Below are positions 29,937 to 54,212 of a stretch of DNA of 64,000 nt, in pieces. The notes under the pieces are model-generated. The model ran no database searches, had not been told where the DNA came from, and saw nothing but the letters and a program-made list of their open reading frames with translations. Both the position numbers and the translations under genes were made by a program. The DNA comes from a virus. Its lineage: Duplodnaviria; Caudoviricetes. Within the stretch, counting starts at the first letter, position 1. Every line of letters begins with the position of its first letter. Location of the stretch: IMG/VR virus record IMGVR_UViG_3300033463_000015; one strand, 5' to 3'.

Positions 29937-30311
29937 ATGGCCTATGAGAAAACAGTATGGCAGGCGGGTGACACCGTAACTGCGGCAAAATTAAATAAAT
30001 TAGAAAATGGTGTGGCGACAGGCGGTGCTATTTATATTCCAATAACAATTGATGAAGAGGAAGAAACGGCAAGCATTAGTTATAGTTATAATGAAATTGC
30101 AGAAATGATAAACGGCGGCGCCACAATTATTTTTACTATGGAAGTAAACGACGGGATTAGCTTTTTCTATGTAAGCTATATGGCAATCGAATCTGGCCAT
30201 TATCTAGTTGGTACTAATGAAGGCCCAGTTTTTTATAGTGAAAGTGCAGATGAACACTTAACCGCATCTCAAGATCTTCCTTCGCCACAGAATCCTGGAA
30301 CTGTATTATAA
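29937..30311 (+). CDS. Small virion protein, paralog 1 (MAYEKTxW...KLNxLExGV N-terminus)
   Basis: N-terminal motif shared with the next two genes. Confidence 0.7.
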   Translation: MAYEKTVWQAGDTVTAAKLNKLENGVATGGAIYIPITIDEEEETASISYSYNEIAEMINGGATIIFTMEVNDGISFFYVSYMAIESGHYLVGTNEGPVFYSESADEHLTASQDLPSPQNPGTVL

Positions 30312-30325
30312 TGGGGGGATTATTA

Positions 30326-30715
30326 ATGGCCTATAATCAAACTAATTGGTCAAGTAATGACCTCATTACAGCAGAAAAATTAAATAATTTAGAAAATGGA
30401 GTTGCTAATTTAAATACTTTTTATATTACAGCCACTACTACCACCGTAACTCCATCAAGGGGAACAGATGAAAACATAACACGTACTACATTAAGTGCTA
30501 GTTATGATGATATTATAGAAGCTATTAATAATAATAAAATAGTTTAGATGGTAGAAAACTTTGAAGGCGAAGAAGAGATCTATCCTTTGGTAGGAATTGG
30601 AACAAATTCTAATTATATGGCAATTTTTGATAATACACCATATTCTGCACTACAATCTACAGATGATTTATTCTATGATTCACAACAATCATCAACTCCC
30701 TTAATAAACGCATGA
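30326..30715 (+). CDS. Small virion protein, paralog 2
   Basis: MAYNQTNW...KLNNLENGV; TAG 30545 read through. Confidence 0.7.
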
Positions 30716-37873: not shown

Positions 37874-37944
37874 AGCAGAGAGACGATTTGGTAATCGTGT
37901 GAGGGACGCCCACGTTGCGAGTTCAATTCTCGCCTCTGCTTTCA
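37874..37944 (+). ncRNA. tRNA-like RNA with aberrant anticodon arm
   Basis: Acceptor AGCAGAG/CTCTGCT; D and T arms intact; no 7-nt anticodon loop. Confidence 0.65.
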
Positions 37945-39530: not shown

Positions 39531-40117
39531 AGGAGATATTAGGTTAGTAAATTTTGAACCAAGTGAAGATGTGCTAACCACACAGCTTGGGCTATCCGTA
39601 TAGTAGCTGTCACTGCCCGAAGGATACTTTTGGTTAAACAGCCGCCAAAACAGCAATGTTAGGCGATAAAGGAGAAACTCCAAATACTAAGGATAGGCGC
39701 TTGGGTGTTCGCAATCAAAAGCACTTTTCCTCTCGGCTACATAATAGAAAGCTTGTTGAACAGACGAGCCGAATCCAGATAAGGCATTGGGGTGGTAGCC
39801 AATGCAAACTCTGGAAATACCATAAGTAGCTATCGGCGTTGATGAAAGCCGGAAACGGCATATAAGAGAGGTTTGTGGTGGGAGTAGGCCAAAGCGACGT
39901 ACAAGTAATATTGAATAAAAGAATTATTGAATATTGCTGAATGGTTTGGCTGAAACTTGAAGGTAGTCAATCCTTCCTACACACGGCGAAAGCGGATCGA
40001 AGAAGCTATGGGATCGCTACCTATGGCTCAGCCTTCGGTTCTGTAGTGGCTGAATATGATTGAAGAATTACTCGGGTACGGCGAAGGTCGCAACAGTTTA
40101 CTAACCTAATATCTCCT
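39531..40117 (+). ncRNA. Large structured RNA, probably ROOL class (587 nt)
   Basis: Own promoter; 21-bp perfect terminal inverted repeat; no ORF; size, tRNA-array context and 3' motifs resemble ROOL. Confidence 0.6.
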
Positions 40118-40636: not shown

Positions 40637-41578
40637 ATGCCATTACCAGTATTATTTGCAGGAACAAGGCCACTTGGCAGAGCAGAAAATATTACCGCAT
40701 TATATGAGGCTTATTAGGGACTGAAAAAATATATTCAAGTTAGCGGAAGTAACGACCATCCAGAAATACGTTCTGGCAATTATAGAGTTTTAATTATTGA
40801 TGACTTTGGCTGTCGCAATCCTGGTAAATGTATTTTACTATGGCACGCTATTTAGGGCGGCAAATATATCGGTCTTAATTAGCCATTCCCTTATACTTCA
40901 TAGCAAAATATAAATAAAATTGATTATATTATTGCCGCAGGTGATGACGCTATTCCAATGTGGTAGCAATGTACTAATTTAGCCGCAGATAAAATTTTGC
41001 CGCTAGGAATGCCACGAACCGATTAGTTTATTGGCAAAACAAAAGGTGATGGGCATACATTATTGGCTAATAAAAAAGCTTATTTATATGCTCCTACTTT
41101 TAGACTTTCTAGTGAGCCATTATTCTTTTAGTTAGATTATGATTGGTTAGATAAACAATTAACTGATGATGAGATATTCGCAGTAAAAGCACATATGGTT
41201 GGAAAGAAAATTTTATCTAAAAAATATAATCATATTGTGGAAATCTCACAAAACGAGCCATCAACTCCATATTTATGTGATTGTGATGTTGTAATAACTG
41301 ATTATAGCAGCATTATATTTGATGGCTATTTACTAAATAAACCTGCTATTTTATTTGAAAAAAGTAGCGGTTATGCCGCTAGCCGTGGAATGTATATGAA
41401 TTATCCTAATGAGTATTGTTCTAAATATGCGACTAATGAATAGGAGTTATTAGATTTATTACGTTCTACTAATGAACTTACAGAAGTAGAAAGAAAATGT
41501 ATTCAACGAGTAGCGAATAAATGCGATGGAAATTCTTGCCAGCGCATTTGTGAACTAATTAAAAAGTTGAATTTTTAA
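40637..41578 (+). CDS. CDP-glycerol glycerophosphotransferase (TagF/TagB-like)
   Basis: WHA, LGMPRTD, LYAPTFR and DVVITDYSSIIFD motifs; many TAG. Confidence 0.8.
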
Positions 41579-41641
41579 AATAATTTTACTTGACTTTTCC
41601 CAAAATTATAGTATAATATAATTGTACCAAAGGGAAATGGT

Positions 41642-42200
41642 GCCGATATAGCTCAGTAGGTAGGTGCGTCTCCTTGGTTTGAAAATCTGCTTTATTATGC
41701 TTCTTTTGGGAGGATGATAAAATGGAATTAAATACCAAACAAAAAGGTAATATTACTGAAATGCAATGTGCCGTTGCTTTTATGTAGCAAGGATACAAAG
41801 TTAGCTTTCCATATGGTGAAGATTGTAAATATGATATGATTGTAGATACTGGTAAACATTTATATCGAGTACAATGTAAAACTTCATCTAAATTACCAAA
41901 TTCAGAAGAAGGATTTAAATTTAAAACTAGATCAACTGTAATTACAACTCATGGAGTAAAAACATCTGGATATTCACAAGAAGAAATAGATGTATTTGCT
42001 ACAATGTACGAAGGTCAATGCTATGTAATATCTGTAAAAGATTGTGGCGTAAATGAAAAAATTTTACGTTTCCAATATCCTAAAAATGGTCAGCATAAAG
42101 GCATTACCTTAGCTGTAGATTACAAATTGGAGCAAACTAAAGCATTTGAGTGATTTTTAAACAAAGGAGAAGGTCCCCAGTTCAAATCTGGGTATCGGCT
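41642..42200 (+). tRNA. tRNA-Thr(GGT) split by a 485-nt insert (exons 41642-41678 and 42164-42200)
   Basis: Joined exons give TCTCC-TTGGTAA-GGAGA and a canonical Thr body GCCGATA/TATCGGC. Confidence 0.85.
41722..42153 (+). CDS. PD-(D/E)XK homing-type endonuclease inside the tRNA-Thr insert
   Basis: TKQKGNITE...PYGEDCKYDMIVD...RVQCKT; TAG at codon 22. Confidence 0.8.
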
Positions 42201-42206
42201 TCATAT

Positions 42207-42279
42207 GGGGCCATAGTGATAATGGTTAGCACTACTGCCTTGCAAGCAGTGAGTCGGGGTTCGATTCCCCGTGGCTCCA
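42207..42279 (+). tRNA. tRNA-Ala(TGC)
   Basis: ACTGC-CTTGCAA-GCAGT; G3:U70. Confidence 0.9.
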
Positions 42280-42283
42280 CTTT

Positions 42284-42357
42284 CGGGATGTAGCACAGTT
42301 GGTTAGTGCAGCGCTCTGATAAGGCGAAGACCGATGGTTCAAGTCCATCCATCCCGA
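42284..42357 (+). tRNA. tRNA-Ile(GAT)
   Basis: Anticodon loop CT-GAT-AA. Confidence 0.85.
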
Positions 42358-42708: not shown

Positions 42709-43061
42709 GGGGTAGTTTTGGTTTCGACAGGTTATGAATGGTATTGAAATCACGGGTAGGCGGCGCACCTTACGCAGCAAACAATTGAACTGACAACGAT
42801 TATTTCTATAGCGAACTAAAGGCTGCTTAATTGCAGTTTCGCGCCTAAACAACAAACCTGCTAATCGGTAAATGTTTGCGGTTCAGAGATAGATTAGTAG
42901 ATTGGCTTCGGGCCAGCTGGTCTTCTCTATTCACAGTCCAACGAATAGAGTGGTGGAAGGATCATTCCCAGTTTGTCAGAACTTAAAACTGACTATCGTG
43001 TAAGTAATTTTCAATATTGGTTGTAGCTTGGACAGGGGTTCAACTCCCCTCTACTCCACCA
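42709..43061 (+). ncRNA. ssrA: tmRNA; tag (A)DNDYFYSELKAA at 42792-42830
   Basis: GGGGTAG...GGTTTCGAC 5' end; 3' T-arm and CTACTCCACCA; tag ends AA-stop. Confidence 0.9.
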
Positions 43062-43389: not shown

Positions 43390-43818
43390 ATGGAGAATAC
43401 TAAAACAAAAGGACAAATTTCTGAAGCAAGAGTTTTATATGAATTTTAGAAGTATCATATACCAGTTTGTCTTCCTTGGGGAGATAATGAACGTTATGAT
43501 ATGGTTGCTGAATTTGATGGTAAATTTAATCGTATTCAAATAAAAACAGCTAATTAGGAAGAAAACGGTGCTGTATGCTGTTGGGCAAGAAGCTCAACAA
43601 ATCACACAACTAATAAAAAATTATCATCATATGAAAATGATGTTGATTACTTTGTCTTTGTTAATCAAACAAGGGACTGGCTAGCACTTGTGCCTATTGA
43701 AGAATTAAATGGGCAGAAAAGCATACGATTACGAATTAATCCACCATTAAATACTAATGGTAAAACTATAAGGTATTTTTCTGACTTCACATTTGATAAA
43801 AAATTTAATTCTCATTAA
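43390..43818 (+). CDS. Free-standing PD-(D/E)XK endonuclease (paralog of 41722-42153)
   Basis: TKTKGQISE...PWGDNERYDMVAE...RIQIKT; two TAG; missed by ORF track. Confidence 0.8.
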
Positions 43819-45649: not shown

Positions 45650-45789
45650 CTTTTGATAAAAAATTTGATATAATATATATAGAAAGTAGGAAATCAGCGA
45701 GTTCTCCCACGAATAAAGTTAGCGCTGTAAAGGGTGGGAACGGTAGGCAGATAGAAGTTGTGAGGTCGCTGATAGGCAACAGATGAAAT

Positions 45790-46052
45790 AGCCCCGTAGT
45801 TGAATGGTACAACACCGGTCTCTAGCCTTAATTGGAGCCTTATATGGAGACGTATAAGTGAAAATGCCGCTAATTCGGTGAAAGCTTAACTGCTAACCCC
45901 GAGCAAGGAGAAATCCGTGTGTAGAGACTTTACACGGCACATCTAGAACAGATGAAGATAAAGTCCGGACCACGATGTGAAAACAATGTGGTGAAGAAAA
46001 CCGTAATATCCCTCTGACGGAGGTTGTCTGGGTTCGAATCCCAGCGGGGCCG
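45790..46052 (+). tRNA. Amber suppressor tRNA (CTA) interrupted by a group I intron
   Basis: Exons 45790-45823 + 45997-46052 give CGGT-CT-CTA-AA-ACCG; long variable arm; G73. Confidence 0.75.
45824..45996 (+). ncRNA. Group I intron (173 nt)
   Basis: Core elements AATTCGGTGAAAG / AACCCCGAGC / GTAGAGACT / AAGATAAAGTCC; IGS GGAG pairs exon CTCT with U.G at splice site; terminal G. Confidence 0.85.
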
Positions 46053-46054
46053 TC

Positions 46055-46233: not shown

Positions 46234-46367
46234 CTGGGTGTAGCGCAGTTTGGTAGCGCATCAGATTTGAAAATCTAGCATAACGGTAATGCTTTATATC
46301 AGAGTTCGATTCTCTGGATTTTCACGGGATCTGAGGGTCGTGAGTTCAAATCTCACCACCCAGACCA
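46234..46367 (+). tRNA. tRNA-Pro (TGG or CGG) with 57-nt tRNA-like insert in the anticodon loop
   Basis: CTGGGTG/CACCCAG-ACCA; TCAGA-TT...GGGA-TCTGA interrupted at 46268-46325. Confidence 0.85.
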
Positions 46368-48419: not shown

Positions 48420-48705
48420 GCGGGTATGGCGGAATAGGCAGACGCCACAGACTTTAATAAAAAGAGCACTAGAATAGGAAACTTTCTGAGTGAATGCTGG
48501 CTAATTCGGTGAAAGTCCTTATGGGATAACGCCGAGCTAAATGGTTTAAAACCTAAATGTGTAGAGACTATATACCAGCCACCTAAATCATAAGATATGG
48601 TGAAGACATAGTCCAGACTACAACGTGTAAGCGGCCATAGTAATATGGAGTAGTAGGAAAATCTGTTGCCCTCTGGGCGTGCCGGTTCAAGTCCGGCTAC
48701 CCGTA
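48420..48705 (+). tRNA. tRNA-Leu(TAA) with group I intron
   Basis: Exons 48420-48454 + 48658-48705 give ACAGA-CT-TAA-AA-TCTGT; Leu-type D arm. Confidence 0.85.
48455..48657 (+). ncRNA. Group I intron (203 nt), after U34
   Basis: AATTCGGTGAAA / AACGCCGAGC / GTAGAGACTA / AAGACATAGTCC core; IGS GAG pairs CTT; terminal G. Confidence 0.85.
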
Positions 48706-48756
48706 CTTATAATCAAAACACCTCCCTTTCTCTACGCGGCGGAAACGCCGCATTAT

Positions 48757-50475: not shown

Positions 50476-50961
50476 ATGCCTACATTGTATATTATGTGCG
50501 GTATTCCGGGGTCTGGTAAAACTTATTTTGCACGGAATTTTCTTCGTGCAGATGTAACAGTATCTCGTGATAATATTCGTTTCATGATGCTGGATGATAA
50601 TGAACAGTATTTTGACCATGAGGCTGAAGTATTTAACGAATTTGTAAAAACTCTTGTGCATCATCTTCATCATTTTGAAACAGTGGTAGCGGATGCGACT
50701 CATCTCAACATCTGGTCACGTAAAAAGCTTACAAATGCTATTGACAAATATATTACGGATTATCGCATCGTATATGTGGTATGCGCTCCTTCACTACAGG
50801 TATGCCTCTATCGTAACAGCAAGCGCACTGGCCGTTCTCGAGTACCAGACGAAATCGTAAAAGAAATGGCCGACAAATTTCATCCGCCCGTAACTGACGC
50901 TTATAAATTGGAAGATGAGCGAGCAGTAGGAGTTTGGTGGATTAATGGCGAACCAAAATGA
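50476..50961 (+). CDS. P-loop kinase (polynucleotide kinase/AAA_33-like)
   Basis: GIPGSGKT, SRDNIR, DATHL and RNSKR lid motif. Confidence 0.8.
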   Translation: MPTLYIMCGIPGSGKTYFARNFLRADVTVSRDNIRFMMLDDNEQYFDHEAEVFNEFVKTLVHHLHHFETVVADATHLNIWSRKKLTNAIDKYITDYRIVYVVCAPSLQVCLYRNSKRTGRSRVPDEIVKEMADKFHPPVTDAYKLEDERAVGVWWINGEPK

Positions 50962-51572
50962 ATAACATTTGGTTTACAAGCGATACACATTTCTTTCACG
51001 AGCAATCATTCATTTACGAACCTCGCGGTTTTACTACCACTATGGAAATGAATGAAGCGATAGTAGAACGATGGAACGAGGTAGTCCAAGAAGAAGATAC
51101 TGTCTATCATCTCGGCGATGTATTAATGGGACATTATGATGTTAATATCCTAAAAAGACTAAACGGTAATATATTTTTAATTCGCGGCAATCACGATACA
51201 TTGCAGAAAATTAGCGACATCTACGAAACTGGCAAGGTAACTAATATTATACACACTAGCGAACTTTTAAAGTTCGGCAAACTAAATTTCTTTTGTTGCC
51301 ATTATCCAGTTCTTACTGCTAATTTTGATGATAAGCATTTTTCGCAGCATATTATTTCCCTACATGGTCATTCACATCAAACTTCTAACTGGCTATTTCC
51401 TGAAAACCCATTTATTTATCATGTTGGACTTGATTCGCACGATTGTAAGCCTGTTCATCTAGACGAAATTACTACGGATATACGAAATAGATGGAATCAA
51501 TTAGGCTAGCTTCCAATCATGTTAAATAAAGATTATCATAAAAATTTCACCTCCGAAGAAAGTCAAGATTAA
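50958..51572 (+). CDS. Calcineurin-like metallophosphoesterase
   Basis: SDTHFFH, HLGD, GNHD, HYP and HGHSH; TAG 51507 read through to TAA 51570. Confidence 0.85.
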
Positions 51573-51636
51573 TTTCTTGACTTTTTTTAAATTTATAGTA
51601 TAATATAAATGTAAAGAGGAAAGGGGAGATTATAGG

Positions 51637-52488
51637 ATGGCAGTCGCTAAATCTTATGAGAATATGGAAATTATGGGCGAGCCTTATGCGCATGATGGCG
51701 ATGCTAAAAAGCTTTATGTGCGGGTGAAAGGTCCGTGCCATCGGTGTGGCGGCTCCGGCCAGTATTCCTATAATCCTATGGATGGCACTCGTTGTCTTGC
51801 TTGCCGCGGTTGTGGCTATGAAATCAAGGAAGTCCGCTGGTATACTGACAAACAGCGTGAAGCTCTTGACCGCGCGGCTGAAAAGCGTGCTGCGGCCAAA
51901 GCTGTGAAGGTTGAAGAGCGGCGTGTGAAGTTCGCGGCTCGTAATGCCTTTGGCTTTGGTGAAGCTGGTTTCATCACTCTTTTCAAGGGTGATAACACCA
52001 TTCTTAATGATTGGGCTCATGAAACCAATCCCTGCCGTGCTCGGTTTAATCTCCTGTTCGGCTGGTTCTGCCCTTCTAAGCTTGAGATTGTTAATCTTCC
52101 CGCTGAAATTACTCCTGTTGTCCTCAAGTGGGAGGATGTTCACAATCCCGATGATCCGGAAGACCTGACTATGCGCGATGAAGCCGAAGTCCGCAAGCTC
52201 ATTCACGAACTACTTGATGATCAGAGCAAGAGTGAATATCAGGGTGAAGTCGGTGATTGGCTTGAGCGCGAAGTTACCATTAAGAAGAATGTTCCTGTTA
52301 ATGGCCGCTTTGGTGAAAGCCGCGTCCATATTATGGAAGATACTGATGGCAACGAATATGTTTGGATTACTGCTTCCAAAAACCTTGAAGTTGGCTTTAA
52401 GTGCGTGATGCGCATGAAGGTCAAGGAGCACAAGGAATATAATGATGTGAAGCAGACTGTCGTTTACTACTGCAAAATGAAAGGATGA
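51637..52488 (+). CDS. Hypothetical protein with Zn-finger and C-terminal OB-fold-like domain
   Basis: CHRCGGSG...CLACRG; VKEHKEYNDVKQT. Confidence 0.7.
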   Translation: MAVAKSYENMEIMGEPYAHDGDAKKLYVRVKGPCHRCGGSGQYSYNPMDGTRCLACRGCGYEIKEVRWYTDKQREALDRAAEKRAAAKAVKVEERRVKFAARNAFGFGEAGFITLFKGDNTILNDWAHETNPCRARFNLLFGWFCPSKLEIVNLPAEITPVVLKWEDVHNPDDPEDLTMRDEAEVRKLIHELLDDQSKSEYQGEVGDWLEREVTIKKNVPVNGRFGESRVHIMEDTDGNEYVWITASKNLEVGFKCVMRMKVKEHKEYNDVKQTVVYYCKMKG

Positions 52489-52736
52489 TGAATATGACTC
52501 TGTATTTTGAGAATAGTCACGGTGTATGGCGCCCTATTGCGGAATGCGCTAACAAGGTTGATGTTGCTATTGCTATCAAGAGATTTCTCGATGAGCATAA
52601 TTACAAGAGCTATTATACTCGCATTTGGGATGAAGATGGCTGGCGGCATTATGATGTTGGCAGCTGGAGCGAGTTCTTTCATTGGCAGATGAGTTCGGAG
52701 GCTAAGATTCCTAATGGTAACGAGAGCAGCAGTTAA
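52485..52736 (+). CDS. Hypothetical protein
   Basis: YYTRIW...YDVGSWSEFF. Confidence 0.65.
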   Translation: MMNMTLYFENSHGVWRPIAECANKVDVAIAIKRFLDEHNYKSYYTRIWDEDGWRHYDVGSWSEFFHWQMSSEAKIPNGNESSS

Positions 52737-52980
52737 AATCTTTGATAATAAACAACAAAAAGAAATTATTATTCCATGCCATCGACATTGCGATGCTTTT
52801 CAGATTTTACATAATTTTGGATATACTATTAGAGATTTTAAAGAATTAGGACAGGGTTTCTTAAATGAGCATGATGAATATATGAGCCGTTTAGAAGCCA
52901 TGAAAGAAGCTAAACGATGCCGTCAAGTGTCAGATTTTAAATTAGTGACTAGTGAATTATATAGTGAAGATTTGTGGTAA
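52714..52980 (+). CDS. Hypothetical protein
   Basis: HRHCD...QGFL...LYSEDLW. Confidence 0.7.
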   Translation: MVTRAAVKIFDNKQQKEIIIPCHRHCDAFQILHNFGYTIRDFKELGQGFLNEHDEYMSRLEAMKEAKRCRQVSDFKLVTSELYSEDLW

Positions 52981-52991
52981 GGAGTTAAAAT

Positions 52992-54212
52992 ATGTTAAAT
53001 TCAAAACAGGAACGCGAATTAGCTTATGTAGGAATTATTGATGGTATTGAACCCATCCTCGGATATGACCGTGTTGAACACGCTATTGTTGGCGGCTGGC
53101 GTGTTATTGTTCAGAAGGGTCAATTTAATGTAGGTGATCCGGCTATCTACTTTGAAATTGATTCCCGCGTGCCTTCTGATAAAGAATGCTTTGCTTTCCT
53201 TGAGAAGCGGCATTATAAGGTAAAAACGCTGAAGATGTGTAAGACTCTTTCACAAGGTTTGCTTATGCACGCCGAAGATTTTGGTTGGCACATAGGACTA
53301 AATTGTGGAGTGATGATGATTTATGATGGAGAAGAATGGCATAATCCTCTTGATGAATCCCGCTTCCTGACTAAACAACTTGGCGTAACTTACGCCGATG
53401 AAGAAGACAATCAGCGTAAGGCTCCTACTGTAGATAAGTATAAGAAAATGGCCGCTCGTCATCCCGAAATTTTCAAGAAATCTTGGGCTAAGTGGATGAT
53501 GAAACATAATTTTGGCCGCAAAGTGATGTTTTTCTTCTTTGGTAAAAAGAAAGATAAGAAGAATGGTTGGCCTTCTTGGGTTCAAAAGACCGATGAAGAG
53601 CGAGTGCAAAATATGCCTTGGATTCTAAATGATGATGGTGATTGGATTGCCACTGAGAAGATTGATGGAACTAGCACTACTTTCTCTATGAAGCGTGGTA
53701 AATTTAGACATAAATCTTTCTATGTCTGTTCCCGCAATGTATGCTTTGGAGAAGAAAGTAAAGAATGCTATTATGATACCAATGTATACTGGGAAATGGC
53801 TAAGCAATATGATATGTTCAAGGTACTATCTAATTTGTTGGCCGCTTATCCTAATGAAGAATGGATTACCATTCAAGGTGAAACTTTTGGTGATGGTATC
53901 CAGCGGCGAGATTACTCTCTCTGCGGTGAACACGATTTTCTAGCATTTAATCTAATTTTCTCATCTCGCGGTCGTGTAGGAACTCTTGAAATGATTGATA
54001 TTCTCGATCCATATGGAATTGAATGCGTGCCTGTGCTTAATTGTAAGATGAAAATTAATCAATTTGAAAATGTAGATGCTATTCTTACTTATGCAGAAGG
54101 TAAATCTTGTCTGGATAATTTACCTCGCGAAGGTATCGTATTCCGTTCTACTGATGGCTCTAAATCTTTTAAAGCTGTAAGTAATAGTTTTCTTCTAAAG
54201 TATCACTCTTAA
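52992..54212 (+). CDS. RNA ligase (DRB0094/Rnl2-Rnl5-like) with N-terminal OB-like domain
   Basis: YFEIDS, KTDEERVQN, TEKIDGTS, IQGE, REGIVF and SFKAVSNSFL. Confidence 0.85.
   Translation: MLNSKQERELAYVGIIDGIEPILGYDRVEHAIVGGWRVIVQKGQFNVGDPAIYFEIDSRVPSDKECFAFLEKRHYKVKTLKMCKTLSQGLLMHAEDFGWHIGLNCGVMMIYDGEEWHNPLDESRFLTKQLGVTYADEEDNQRKAPTVDKYKKMAARHPEIFKKSWAKWMMKHNFGRKVMFFFFGKKKDKKNGWPSWVQKTDEERVQNMPWILNDDGDWIATEKIDGTSTTFSMKRGKFRHKSFYVCSRNVCFGEESKECYYDTNVYWEMAKQYDMFKVLSNLLAAYPNEEWITIQGETFGDGIQRRDYSLCGEHDFLAFNLIFSSRGRVGTLEMIDILDPYGIECVPVLNCKMKINQFENVDAILTYAEGKSCLDNLPREGIVFRSTDGSKSFKAVSNSFLLKYHS

Follow-up and report, generated by a model that had tools for sequence, protein, structure and literature searches.

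How does a tRNA gene that is split within its anticodon loop by a protein-coding insert yield a tRNA, if it does so at all, when the insert leaves almost no room for a self-splicing ribozyme? This question is raised by a tRNA-Thr(GGT) gene in a 64,000-nt stretch of phage DNA (IMG/VR record IMGVR_UViG_3300033463_000015), which we refer to as the window and whose positions are numbered from its first letter. The gene occupies 41642-42200, and ARAGORN places a 485-nt insert in it. The 5' exon (41642-41678, tRNA positions 1-36) ends in TTGGT, with the anticodon GGT last, and the 3' exon (42164-42200, positions 37-73) begins with AAGGAGA and is followed by TCA, not CCA. Between T36 and A37 lies the insert, a candidate intron (41679-42163), which consists of a 43-nt leader (41679-41721), an open reading frame (ORF) of 143 amino acids (41722-42153 including the stop, with one TAG at 41785-41787) and a 10-nt trailer (42154-42163). 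A ribosome-binding site (GGGAGGA, 41708-41714) can be read from the sequence with an ATG 7 nt downstream, and a sigma-70-type promoter (TTGACT-16-TATAAT, 41590-41617, 11 of 12 consensus matches) ends 25 nt upstream of the tRNA; all of these features are on the plus strand. The coordinates agree with the anatomy given in a preliminary description of this DNA, and the observation of a split tRNA-Thr is confirmed and solid. Based on sequence evidence, we suggest that the insert may be a mobile, ribozyme-less intron of a family without earlier description, and that it may be removed from the transcript by protein-dependent excision and ligation, a reading to which we assign a probability of about 0.45.

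The identity of the gene was established with an uninterrupted homolog (L013:2044-2119), which has the loop TTGGTAA and the same D and anticodon arms as the exons of L072, a relative of the window insert. Therefore, the gene is tRNA-Thr(GGT), split between T36 and A37. The ARAGORN call of Ser(GGA) for 41642-42200 was dropped, given the short variable loop/arm and the loop of the intact homolog. IMG/VR contained no exact-pattern match to the Thr junction or to an intron-less allele, and no close DNA relatives of the window were found among GenBank phages. The contig is phage-like, with a G+C content of 37.7%, and reads TAG as a sense codon throughout: ORFs of ≥150 amino acids hold 9,120 codons with translation table 11 vs. 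17,755 with TAG read through, and each large gene of the window contains 5-17 TAGs.

The ORF within the insert is a PD-(D/E)XK homing endonuclease gene, as the preliminary description had supposed, and belongs to the I-Ssp6803I family. It matches Pfam PF11645 (PDDEXK_5) with an E-value of 1.1e-27 over 133 of 138 profile positions, and I-Ssp6803I itself (PDB 2OST) by sequence with an E-value of 1.6e-4. Its structure model (pLDDT 91) has 2OST chains as all of its top four PDB matches (E 2.6e-9, TM 0.73), followed at lower ranks by Holliday-junction resolvases and EcoRV; EndA was absent among these fold matches. Across 25 relatives, residues D38, Q51, and K53 are invariant and E13 nearly so, and the identity by codon position among four relatives (0.59/0.80/0.41) marks a protein under selection. 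Codon 22, the TAG at 41785-41787, aligns with CAA in the relatives L072 and L073, and the endonuclease gene is therefore intact in the phage's own code. A change of this TAG to CAG, which had been proposed for assays of the enzyme, is not needed, as the whole contig reads TAG as sense. A second, free-standing endonuclease gene of the same family is located on the plus strand at 43390-43818 (PF11645, E 6e-28); it has two in-frame TAGs and follows tRNA-Lys, inside no recognisable tRNA.

No self-splicing core could be detected in the insert. Neither Intron_gpI nor any other Rfam ribozyme was detected in 41500-42350 even at E ≤ 10, in line with the earlier claim that the insert leaves no non-coding room for a group I core, and none was found in 20 related loci at E ≤ 0.1. 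Positive controls within the window were recovered, namely a group I core in tRNA-Leu (65.5 bits) and another in a suppressor tRNA (40.7 bits, E 7e-9). A group I core needs about 200 nt of non-coding RNA, and the non-coding part of the Thr insert is 53 nt in all. Across the family of related inserts described below, leaders measure 2-46 nt and trailers 1-19 nt, even in inserts of 650-850 nt, which are filled by longer ORFs. Identity at third codon positions is flat along the endonuclease ORF (0.42, 0.44, 0.30, 0.50), without the extra constraint of a hidden core. The rule that group I introns follow a U and end in G is also broken: the Thr insert in the window ends in A, and base 36 of relatives is G (Pro, Arg), C (Ala, Gly, Glu, Val) or A (Trp). 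The Thr insert has neither the detectable core, nor the terminal G, nor the non-coding room of a group I intron. A degenerate or very compact group I intron with its core overlapping the ORF would accord with the endonuclease family, which is also that of the cyanobacterial tRNA-fMet group I intron, and with the real group I introns that this phage has in two other tRNAs, but in view of the failed searches, the unconstrained third positions, the filled inserts and the terminal bases we regard it as barely credible.

Those two genes are a suppressor tRNA (CTA; 45789-46054), whose 173-nt insert is a clear group I intron that nevertheless scores below the Rfam gathering threshold and was found in the permissive scan, and tRNA-Leu(TAA) (48420-48706; Rfam match at 48445-48630), which has a group I intron, as it does in cyanobacteria and plastids. 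The suppressor is the only TAG-decoding tRNA in the window, so that the reading of TAG in late genes depends on self-splicing.

The Thr insert is not an isolated case. Using an alignment of five endonucleases as query, we retrieved 64 IMG/VR loci, and close relatives of the Thr insert itself came from a metagenome scan. In all, we count at least 47 distinct members, among them 44 non-identical endonuclease inserts, the window lineage L072, L073, and L075 (endonucleases 82, 74, and 62% identical, respectively) and a Met(CAT) case. The preliminary description had proposed a search for like inserts in phage tRNA loops and had placed the Thr insert in a family; its membership is borne out, and the family is far larger than could be seen from the window. 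The ORF is located inside a tRNA anticodon loop in about 50 loci, and L002 and L003 are free-standing endonuclease copies. Inserts are 439-490 nt long, or 650-850 nt where the ORF has an extra C-terminal domain. Insertion at 36/37 fits 30 of the 31 inserts whose tRNA could be identified by its body, vs. at most 10 for any other position, and the anticodons that ARAGORN assigns to split tRNAs are often off by a register. The target tRNAs are Thr (TGT/GGT), Pro (TGG), Lys (TTT/CTT), Asn (GTT), Ser (GCT), Ala (TGC), Gly (TCC), Glu (TTC), Trp (CCA), Arg (ACG), Val (TAC), and Met (CAT). Endonucleases that share a target tRNA group together (14 label changes vs. a shuffled value of 26.8, and none of 200 shuffles was as low), and target switches are few, as in an Asn lineage that moved to Lys.

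One carrier (L014) is a cultured virus, Enterococcus phage EFP01, a Schiekvirus with a genome of 155,053 bp and a split tRNA-Asn(GTT). In about 60 relatives of EFP01 with 94-98% identity, the insert is absent and tRNA-Asn(GTT) is annotated, and comparison of the intact loop of EFDG1 (CTGTTAA) with EFP01 (CTGTT...AA) gives an unambiguous junction. The family, these filled and empty alleles, and the endonucleases that track their target tRNA together indicate that the element probably homes at the DNA level, that is, that the endonuclease cuts the uninterrupted target gene and thereby drives insertion. In EFP01, the last ~30 nt of the ORF (L092, ~1096-1125) resemble the tRNA-Asn 5' exon from the D arm to the anticodon stem, and MAFFT aligned the intact tRNA-Asn gene to that ORF end. 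The Gram-negative phage My1 of Pectobacterium, also cultured, may be another carrier; its genome (JX195166.1) encodes an endonuclease homolog with 32% identity at 30091-30486, overlapping an annotated tRNA-Ile.

The ends of the insert pair with each other, as had been noted before. In the window, GTTTGAAAATC (41677-41687; G35, T36, and insert positions +1 to +9) pairs with GATTTTTAAAC (42152-42162), and this pairing prolongs the anticodon stem TCTCC/GGAGA; opposite the anticodon GGT stand the three terminal bases of the insert, ACA (42161-42163). A second helix follows between TGCTTT in the leader (41688-41693) and AAAGCA within the ORF end (42139-42144), all strands again being given in plus orientation, and it is invariant across four relatives save one U·G change. 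An ungapped alignment of 44 different junction pairs indicates that this rod is a property of the whole family. From the 5-bp anticodon stem it continues with 33:37, 34:-1, 35:-2, 36:-3, and +1:-4 through +6:-9 or +7:-10, followed by a conserved non-pair at +8:-11 and by the second helix between leader and ORF end. Positions 34:-1 to +6:-9 are paired in 82-100% of the inserts vs. 44-66% after shuffling, and 0 of 1000 shuffles reach the observed level, while +8:-11 is A·A in 21 of 44 and paired in 11% vs. 21% by chance. At least two internal-loop types occur in the family.

With four to seven standard pair types at each rod position, the covariation demonstrates the structure, and in the window lineage (L072, L073, L075) position +4:-7 covaries from A-T to G-C. 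G·U pairs greatly outnumber A·C pairs (69 vs. 2 from 33:37 to +7:-10), an asymmetry indicating that selection acts on the sense-strand RNA and not on a DNA inverted repeat. In the same lineage, conservation at the ends of the insert exceeds that at synonymous sites: identity is 0.70 over the first 20 bases and 0.84 over the last 25, vs. 0.41 at third codon positions and 0.17 in the remainder of the leader. In addition, the insert ends in a triplet that is a cognate or near-cognate codon of the split tRNA (AAA in Lys, TGG in Trp, GGG in Gly, GAA in Glu, AGC in Ser, CGT in Arg, GTA in Val, ATG in Met), and in the lineage that switched from Asn to Lys the triplet changed from AGC to AAA. The bases at the junctions vary freely across the family. 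The junctions are located on opposite strands of the rod, separated by 3 bp, and the 5' exon would end in the anticodon as a 3-nt 3' overhang.

Decay of the exons in homologs had been named as evidence against splicing. Most split tRNAs are no worse than uninterrupted ones, although the acceptor stem of one copy, L033, has decayed. Acceptor and T stems are free of mismatches in 67% of split vs. 59% of uninterrupted tRNAs from the same loci (p 0.37), and in acceptor and T stems, T-loop consensus and encoded CCA the 48 split tRNAs are as good as the 271 uninterrupted tRNAs of those loci. About 50 of ~56 tRNA-borne copies have cloverleaf-competent exons, despite endonuclease identities of 35-55%. 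The complete genome G005 has no uninterrupted gene for Lys(TTT) or Thr(TGT), only split ones.

Inserts in anticodon loops are found in these arrays even without an ORF. The window's only tRNA-Pro (46234-46367, plus strand) carries a 57-nt insert resembling a miniature tRNA (~46269-46325), which has TTTGAAAATCT, GCTTTAT, and GATTTT in common with the Thr insert. The 11-mer TTTGAAAATCT occurs twice in the 64 kb, both times at a 5' junction (Thr and Pro inserts), where 0.14 copies are expected and 0 of 100 shuffles reach two. The Pro insert folds into an acceptor-like stem of 7-8 bp, a D arm, and a T arm with TTCGATT, the anticodon arm being absent. Placement at 34/35 or 35/36 restores TGG and placement at 33/34 restores CGG, whereas 36/37 is impossible. 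The preliminary description had regarded the Pro insert as the minimal form of one family with the Thr insert; the shared 11-mer and GATTTT stand, but the insert is not at 36/37 and is a mini-tRNA, not a rod. In a tRNA-Glu(TTC) of another array (L024:685-830, insert 719-786), the anticodon loop contains a tRNA-like sequence of near full size (Rfam tRNA, 41 bits, loop TTATGGA), and a tRNA-Leu(TAA) (L051:2160-2284) has a plain ORF-less hairpin of 40 nt in its anticodon loop. These cases suggest that tRNA arrays tolerate anticodon-loop inserts, and they show that structured inserts persist without a selfish gene, which counts in favor of splicing. In a further case (L007:1157-1305), the anticodon loop of a Lys-type tRNA holds a 72-nt ORF-less insert, in which a terminal helix stacks on a 5-bp hairpin with a 7-nt loop. 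RNase P and RNase Z could possibly release the Pro miniature tRNA, and their action followed by that of a ligase would be a reasonable route for the tRNA-like inserts in general.

Enzymes that could rejoin tRNA halves are encoded directly after the tRNA array, within 50476-54212 on the plus strand. These are a P-loop kinase (AAA_33, Pfam E 2.6e-20; 50476-50961), a candidate polynucleotide 5'-kinase; a calcineurin-like phosphoesterase (Metallophos, Pfam E 1.3e-7; 50958-51572), a candidate 2',3'-end healing enzyme; and an ATP-dependent RNA ligase with an N-terminal OB domain and a nucleotidyltransferase domain (PF21189 E 4e-20, PF09414 E 3e-21; 52992-54212), a candidate exon sealer. The ligase matches the PHROG annotated as RNA ligase with an E-value of 3e-64 and is 52% identical to the ligase of another carrier phage. 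By their annotation, the three genes constitute a heal-and-seal set encoded together in the window. Between the phosphoesterase and the ligase, a 283-amino-acid protein (51637-52488), whose only matches are to PHROGs of unknown function, is a possible ligase-associated factor. A PF09414 ligase is found in four of the first five carrier genomes and in 21 of 27 further ones, and among five records lacking it that were checked, EFP01 encodes RtcB, three encode a T4 Rnl1-type ligase, and G017 (86% complete) showed neither. One of the three ligase types is encoded in each of the 22 carrier records with a completeness of at least 90%, a count made in carriers only. The ligases in carriers are consistent with splicing, not proof of it.

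The nuclease that would make the cuts is less readily assigned. EndA (PF01974) is absent from five carrier phage genomes, in a search in which archaeal controls match, and Pfam and PHROG scans of nine uncharacterised ORFs in or near the tRNA array yielded no nuclease candidate. RNase III was rejected by arithmetic on the alignment, in that a 2-nt stagger in a fully paired loop cannot leave a 7-nt loop. For the endonuclease inserts, the combination of RNase P and RNase Z was likewise rejected, as a T-arm-like module is absent and cutting behind the "discriminator" would leave two extra bases.

Taken together, splicing of the Thr insert might proceed as follows. The endonuclease would cut uninterrupted tRNA genes at the anticodon, and the element would be copied in between positions 36 and 37. 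In the pre-tRNA, as the covariation shows, the anticodon stem is prolonged without a break, with U33 pairing with A37, the anticodon pairing with the codon-like last three insert bases, and +1 to +7 pairing with -4 to -10; the conserved A·A mismatch comes next, and then the second helix, closing off the ORF. A candidate protein endonuclease could cut at both junctions, after which the halves, held together by the tRNA body, could be sealed by the phage RNA ligase. The kinase and phosphoesterase would heal the ends if these are 5'-OH and 2',3'-cyclic phosphate. The endonuclease would be translated either from the precursor or from the rod after excision, and this would probably happen late, given that the TAG in its mRNA depends on the phage suppressor tRNA. 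The cutting enzyme could also be the intron-encoded endonuclease itself, performing both the homing cut of the empty gene and, like EndA, the cut of its own pre-tRNA rod. The catalytic domain of EndA is classed in the same fold superfamily as the PD-(D/E)XK endonucleases; we nevertheless consider this double role, proposed by analogy, improbable.

Several observations weigh against splicing, and many of them would suit an endonuclease gene that has simply homed into a dispensable tRNA gene and inactivated it. L016 (1486-1929 plus flanks) has the ORF and the full rod, including the 5-bp "anticodon stem" and the loop bases, between two intact tRNAs but no tRNA body; in L005, an intact tRNA is followed by an endonuclease gene and then by the orphan 3' half of a tRNA; the acceptor stem of L033 is mismatched at two positions, and the T loop of L026 is non-canonical. 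The window copy itself has a U12·U23 mismatch in the D stem and one extra D-loop base, and has lost the encoded CCA of its relatives, with TCA in its place. The insert is present in only one of ~61 closely related Schiekviruses. Given L016, L033, and L005, the rod may serve the element itself, whose transcript it could help to release from the tRNA precursor through a double-strand RNase, to stabilize or to control in translation, and the rod alone can also account for compensation in the anticodon stem. Likewise, intact exons can be explained by repeated invasion of healthy genes, so that they look healthy because the invasions are recent and recurrent. The 3-bp stagger of the junctions is at odds both with RNase III, which has a stagger of 2 nt, and with the combination of RNase P and RNase Z. 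RNA ligases like those of the carriers are also widespread in large, tRNA-rich phages, where they counteract anticodon nucleases (PMC7824862). By contrast, the terminal triplet tracks the anticodon across 13 anticodon types and changes upon a target switch, which an element-internal helix would not need to do. The many cloverleaf-competent copies that are no worse than uninterrupted tRNAs, the complete genomes with only split genes for an anticodon, and the ORF-less inserts in the same arrays also argue against inactivation without splicing. We treat such a purely selfish insertion as a serious but tentative alternative.

Excision might also be catalyzed by the RNA, if the rod with its mismatch, perhaps together with the tRNA body, formed a small ribozyme of an unrecognised kind that self-cleaves at both junctions and leaves the joining of exons to phage enzymes or RtcB. 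Self-cleavage would give 5'-OH and 2',3'-cyclic phosphate ends, and the three ligation routes of carriers (RtcB in EFP01, the Rnl1-type ligases, and, in the window, the OB-type ligase together with kinase and phosphoesterase) have a substrate chemistry in common only if the ends are of this kind. The conserved non-pair at +8:-11 points in the same direction. Very few nucleotides are conserved, however, and the freely varying junction bases, the two or more internal-loop types, and the absence of any match to Rfam ribozyme families at permissive thresholds make this possibility very unlikely in our view.

The split tRNA-Thr is located within a tRNA array that spans ~34.2-50.2 kb of the window and includes four interrupted tRNAs, according to ARAGORN with intron search. 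A ROOL RNA (39535-40110, 332 bits) and a transfer-messenger RNA (tmRNA; 42709-43061, 95 bits) are also located in the array, and ROOL, tmRNA, and a GOLLD-like match recur in the related arrays L014, L028, and L010. A weak tRNA-like match at 37874-37941 (31.7 bits), with an odd anticodon arm, was not called by ARAGORN.

One of the closest known systems is the group I intron in tRNA-fMet of Synechocystis PCC 6803, the source of I-Ssp6803I (2OST). It has the same endonuclease family, a tRNA host gene and an anticodon-loop location, and it also follows anticodon base 36. The Synechocystis intron, however, is a self-splicing ribozyme of about 650 nt, whereas the phage insert has 53 nt of non-coding sequence and no detectable core. 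Furthermore, in the phage inserts the exon need not end in U nor the insert in G, and the 3' end of the insert pairs with the anticodon in a long rod.

In their logic, the phage inserts are also reminiscent of the archaeal bulge-helix-bulge introns of tRNA and rRNA, which are cut by EndA and joined by RtcB and some of which contain homing endonuclease genes. In both cases a ribozyme is absent, intron bases pair with the anticodon, the sites are staggered with a 5' exon overhang, and a ligase would be needed. The RtcB or the kinase/phosphoesterase/ligase sets of carrier phages parallel the two known ligation routes of tRNA splicing. The analogy with archaeal introns drawn in the preliminary description therefore holds for the logic of anticodon-intron pairing and staggered sites but not for the motif: the phage inserts have a continuous 3-bp helix between the sites, where archaeal introns have 3-nt bulges flanking a 4-bp helix, and insertion is at 36/37 instead of 37/38. 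The hosts also differ, being bacteria in the case of the window phage, as its tmRNA, ROOL RNA, and sigma-70 promoter show.

Two phage systems are also relevant. As in the tRNA repair of phage T4, in which Pnkp and Rnl1 act against the host PrrC, the window phage has a kinase, a phosphoesterase, and a ligase that may reseal a break in the anticodon loop. The T4 break, however, is damage by the host and not the removal of an insert, and the window ligase is of the OB-plus-nucleotidyltransferase (PHA02142) type, not Rnl1. Free-standing homing endonuclease genes provide the other comparison. In Aeromonas phage Aeh1, one such gene, mobE, splits the nrdA gene, and SegB of T4 is a homing endonuclease gene located in a phage tRNA array (PMC8421152). 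As with mobE and SegB, endonuclease genes of the present family lie inside or beside phage genes without a splicing element, L002, L003, and 43390-43818 of the window being the free-standing copies. The two chains of a split protein can still function, whereas a tRNA with a broken anticodon loop must be rejoined before it can decode.

To our knowledge, the known introns in bacterial and phage genes are all self-splicing ribozymes, and protein-dependent tRNA splicing is regarded as archaeal and eukaryal. According to a review of 2014, all phage introns then known were in protein-coding genes, despite the many tRNA genes of phages (PMC3984707). Our literature search found no description of ORF-only tRNA introns in phages, and as far as that search reached, the family-level anatomy is new.

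Whichever reading is true, tRNA finders mis-call these split genes, most of which received a wrong anticodon from ARAGORN. If the inserts are not spliced, they represent a widespread class of tRNA-inactivating endonuclease genes in phages, which bears on the dispensability of phage tRNA arrays. If they are spliced, phages of Gram-positive gut bacteria would possess an independent tRNA splicing pathway based on proteins, their RNA ligases would have a regular task in addition to repair, and the cultured Enterococcus phage EFP01 would offer a system in which to test how protein-spliced tRNA introns originated. Should the endonuclease perform both cuts, it would constitute, together with the phage ligase, a self-sufficient protein-spliced mobile intron in bacterial viruses, and ORF-less inserts, such as the miniature tRNA in tRNA-Pro, would ride on the same ligase.

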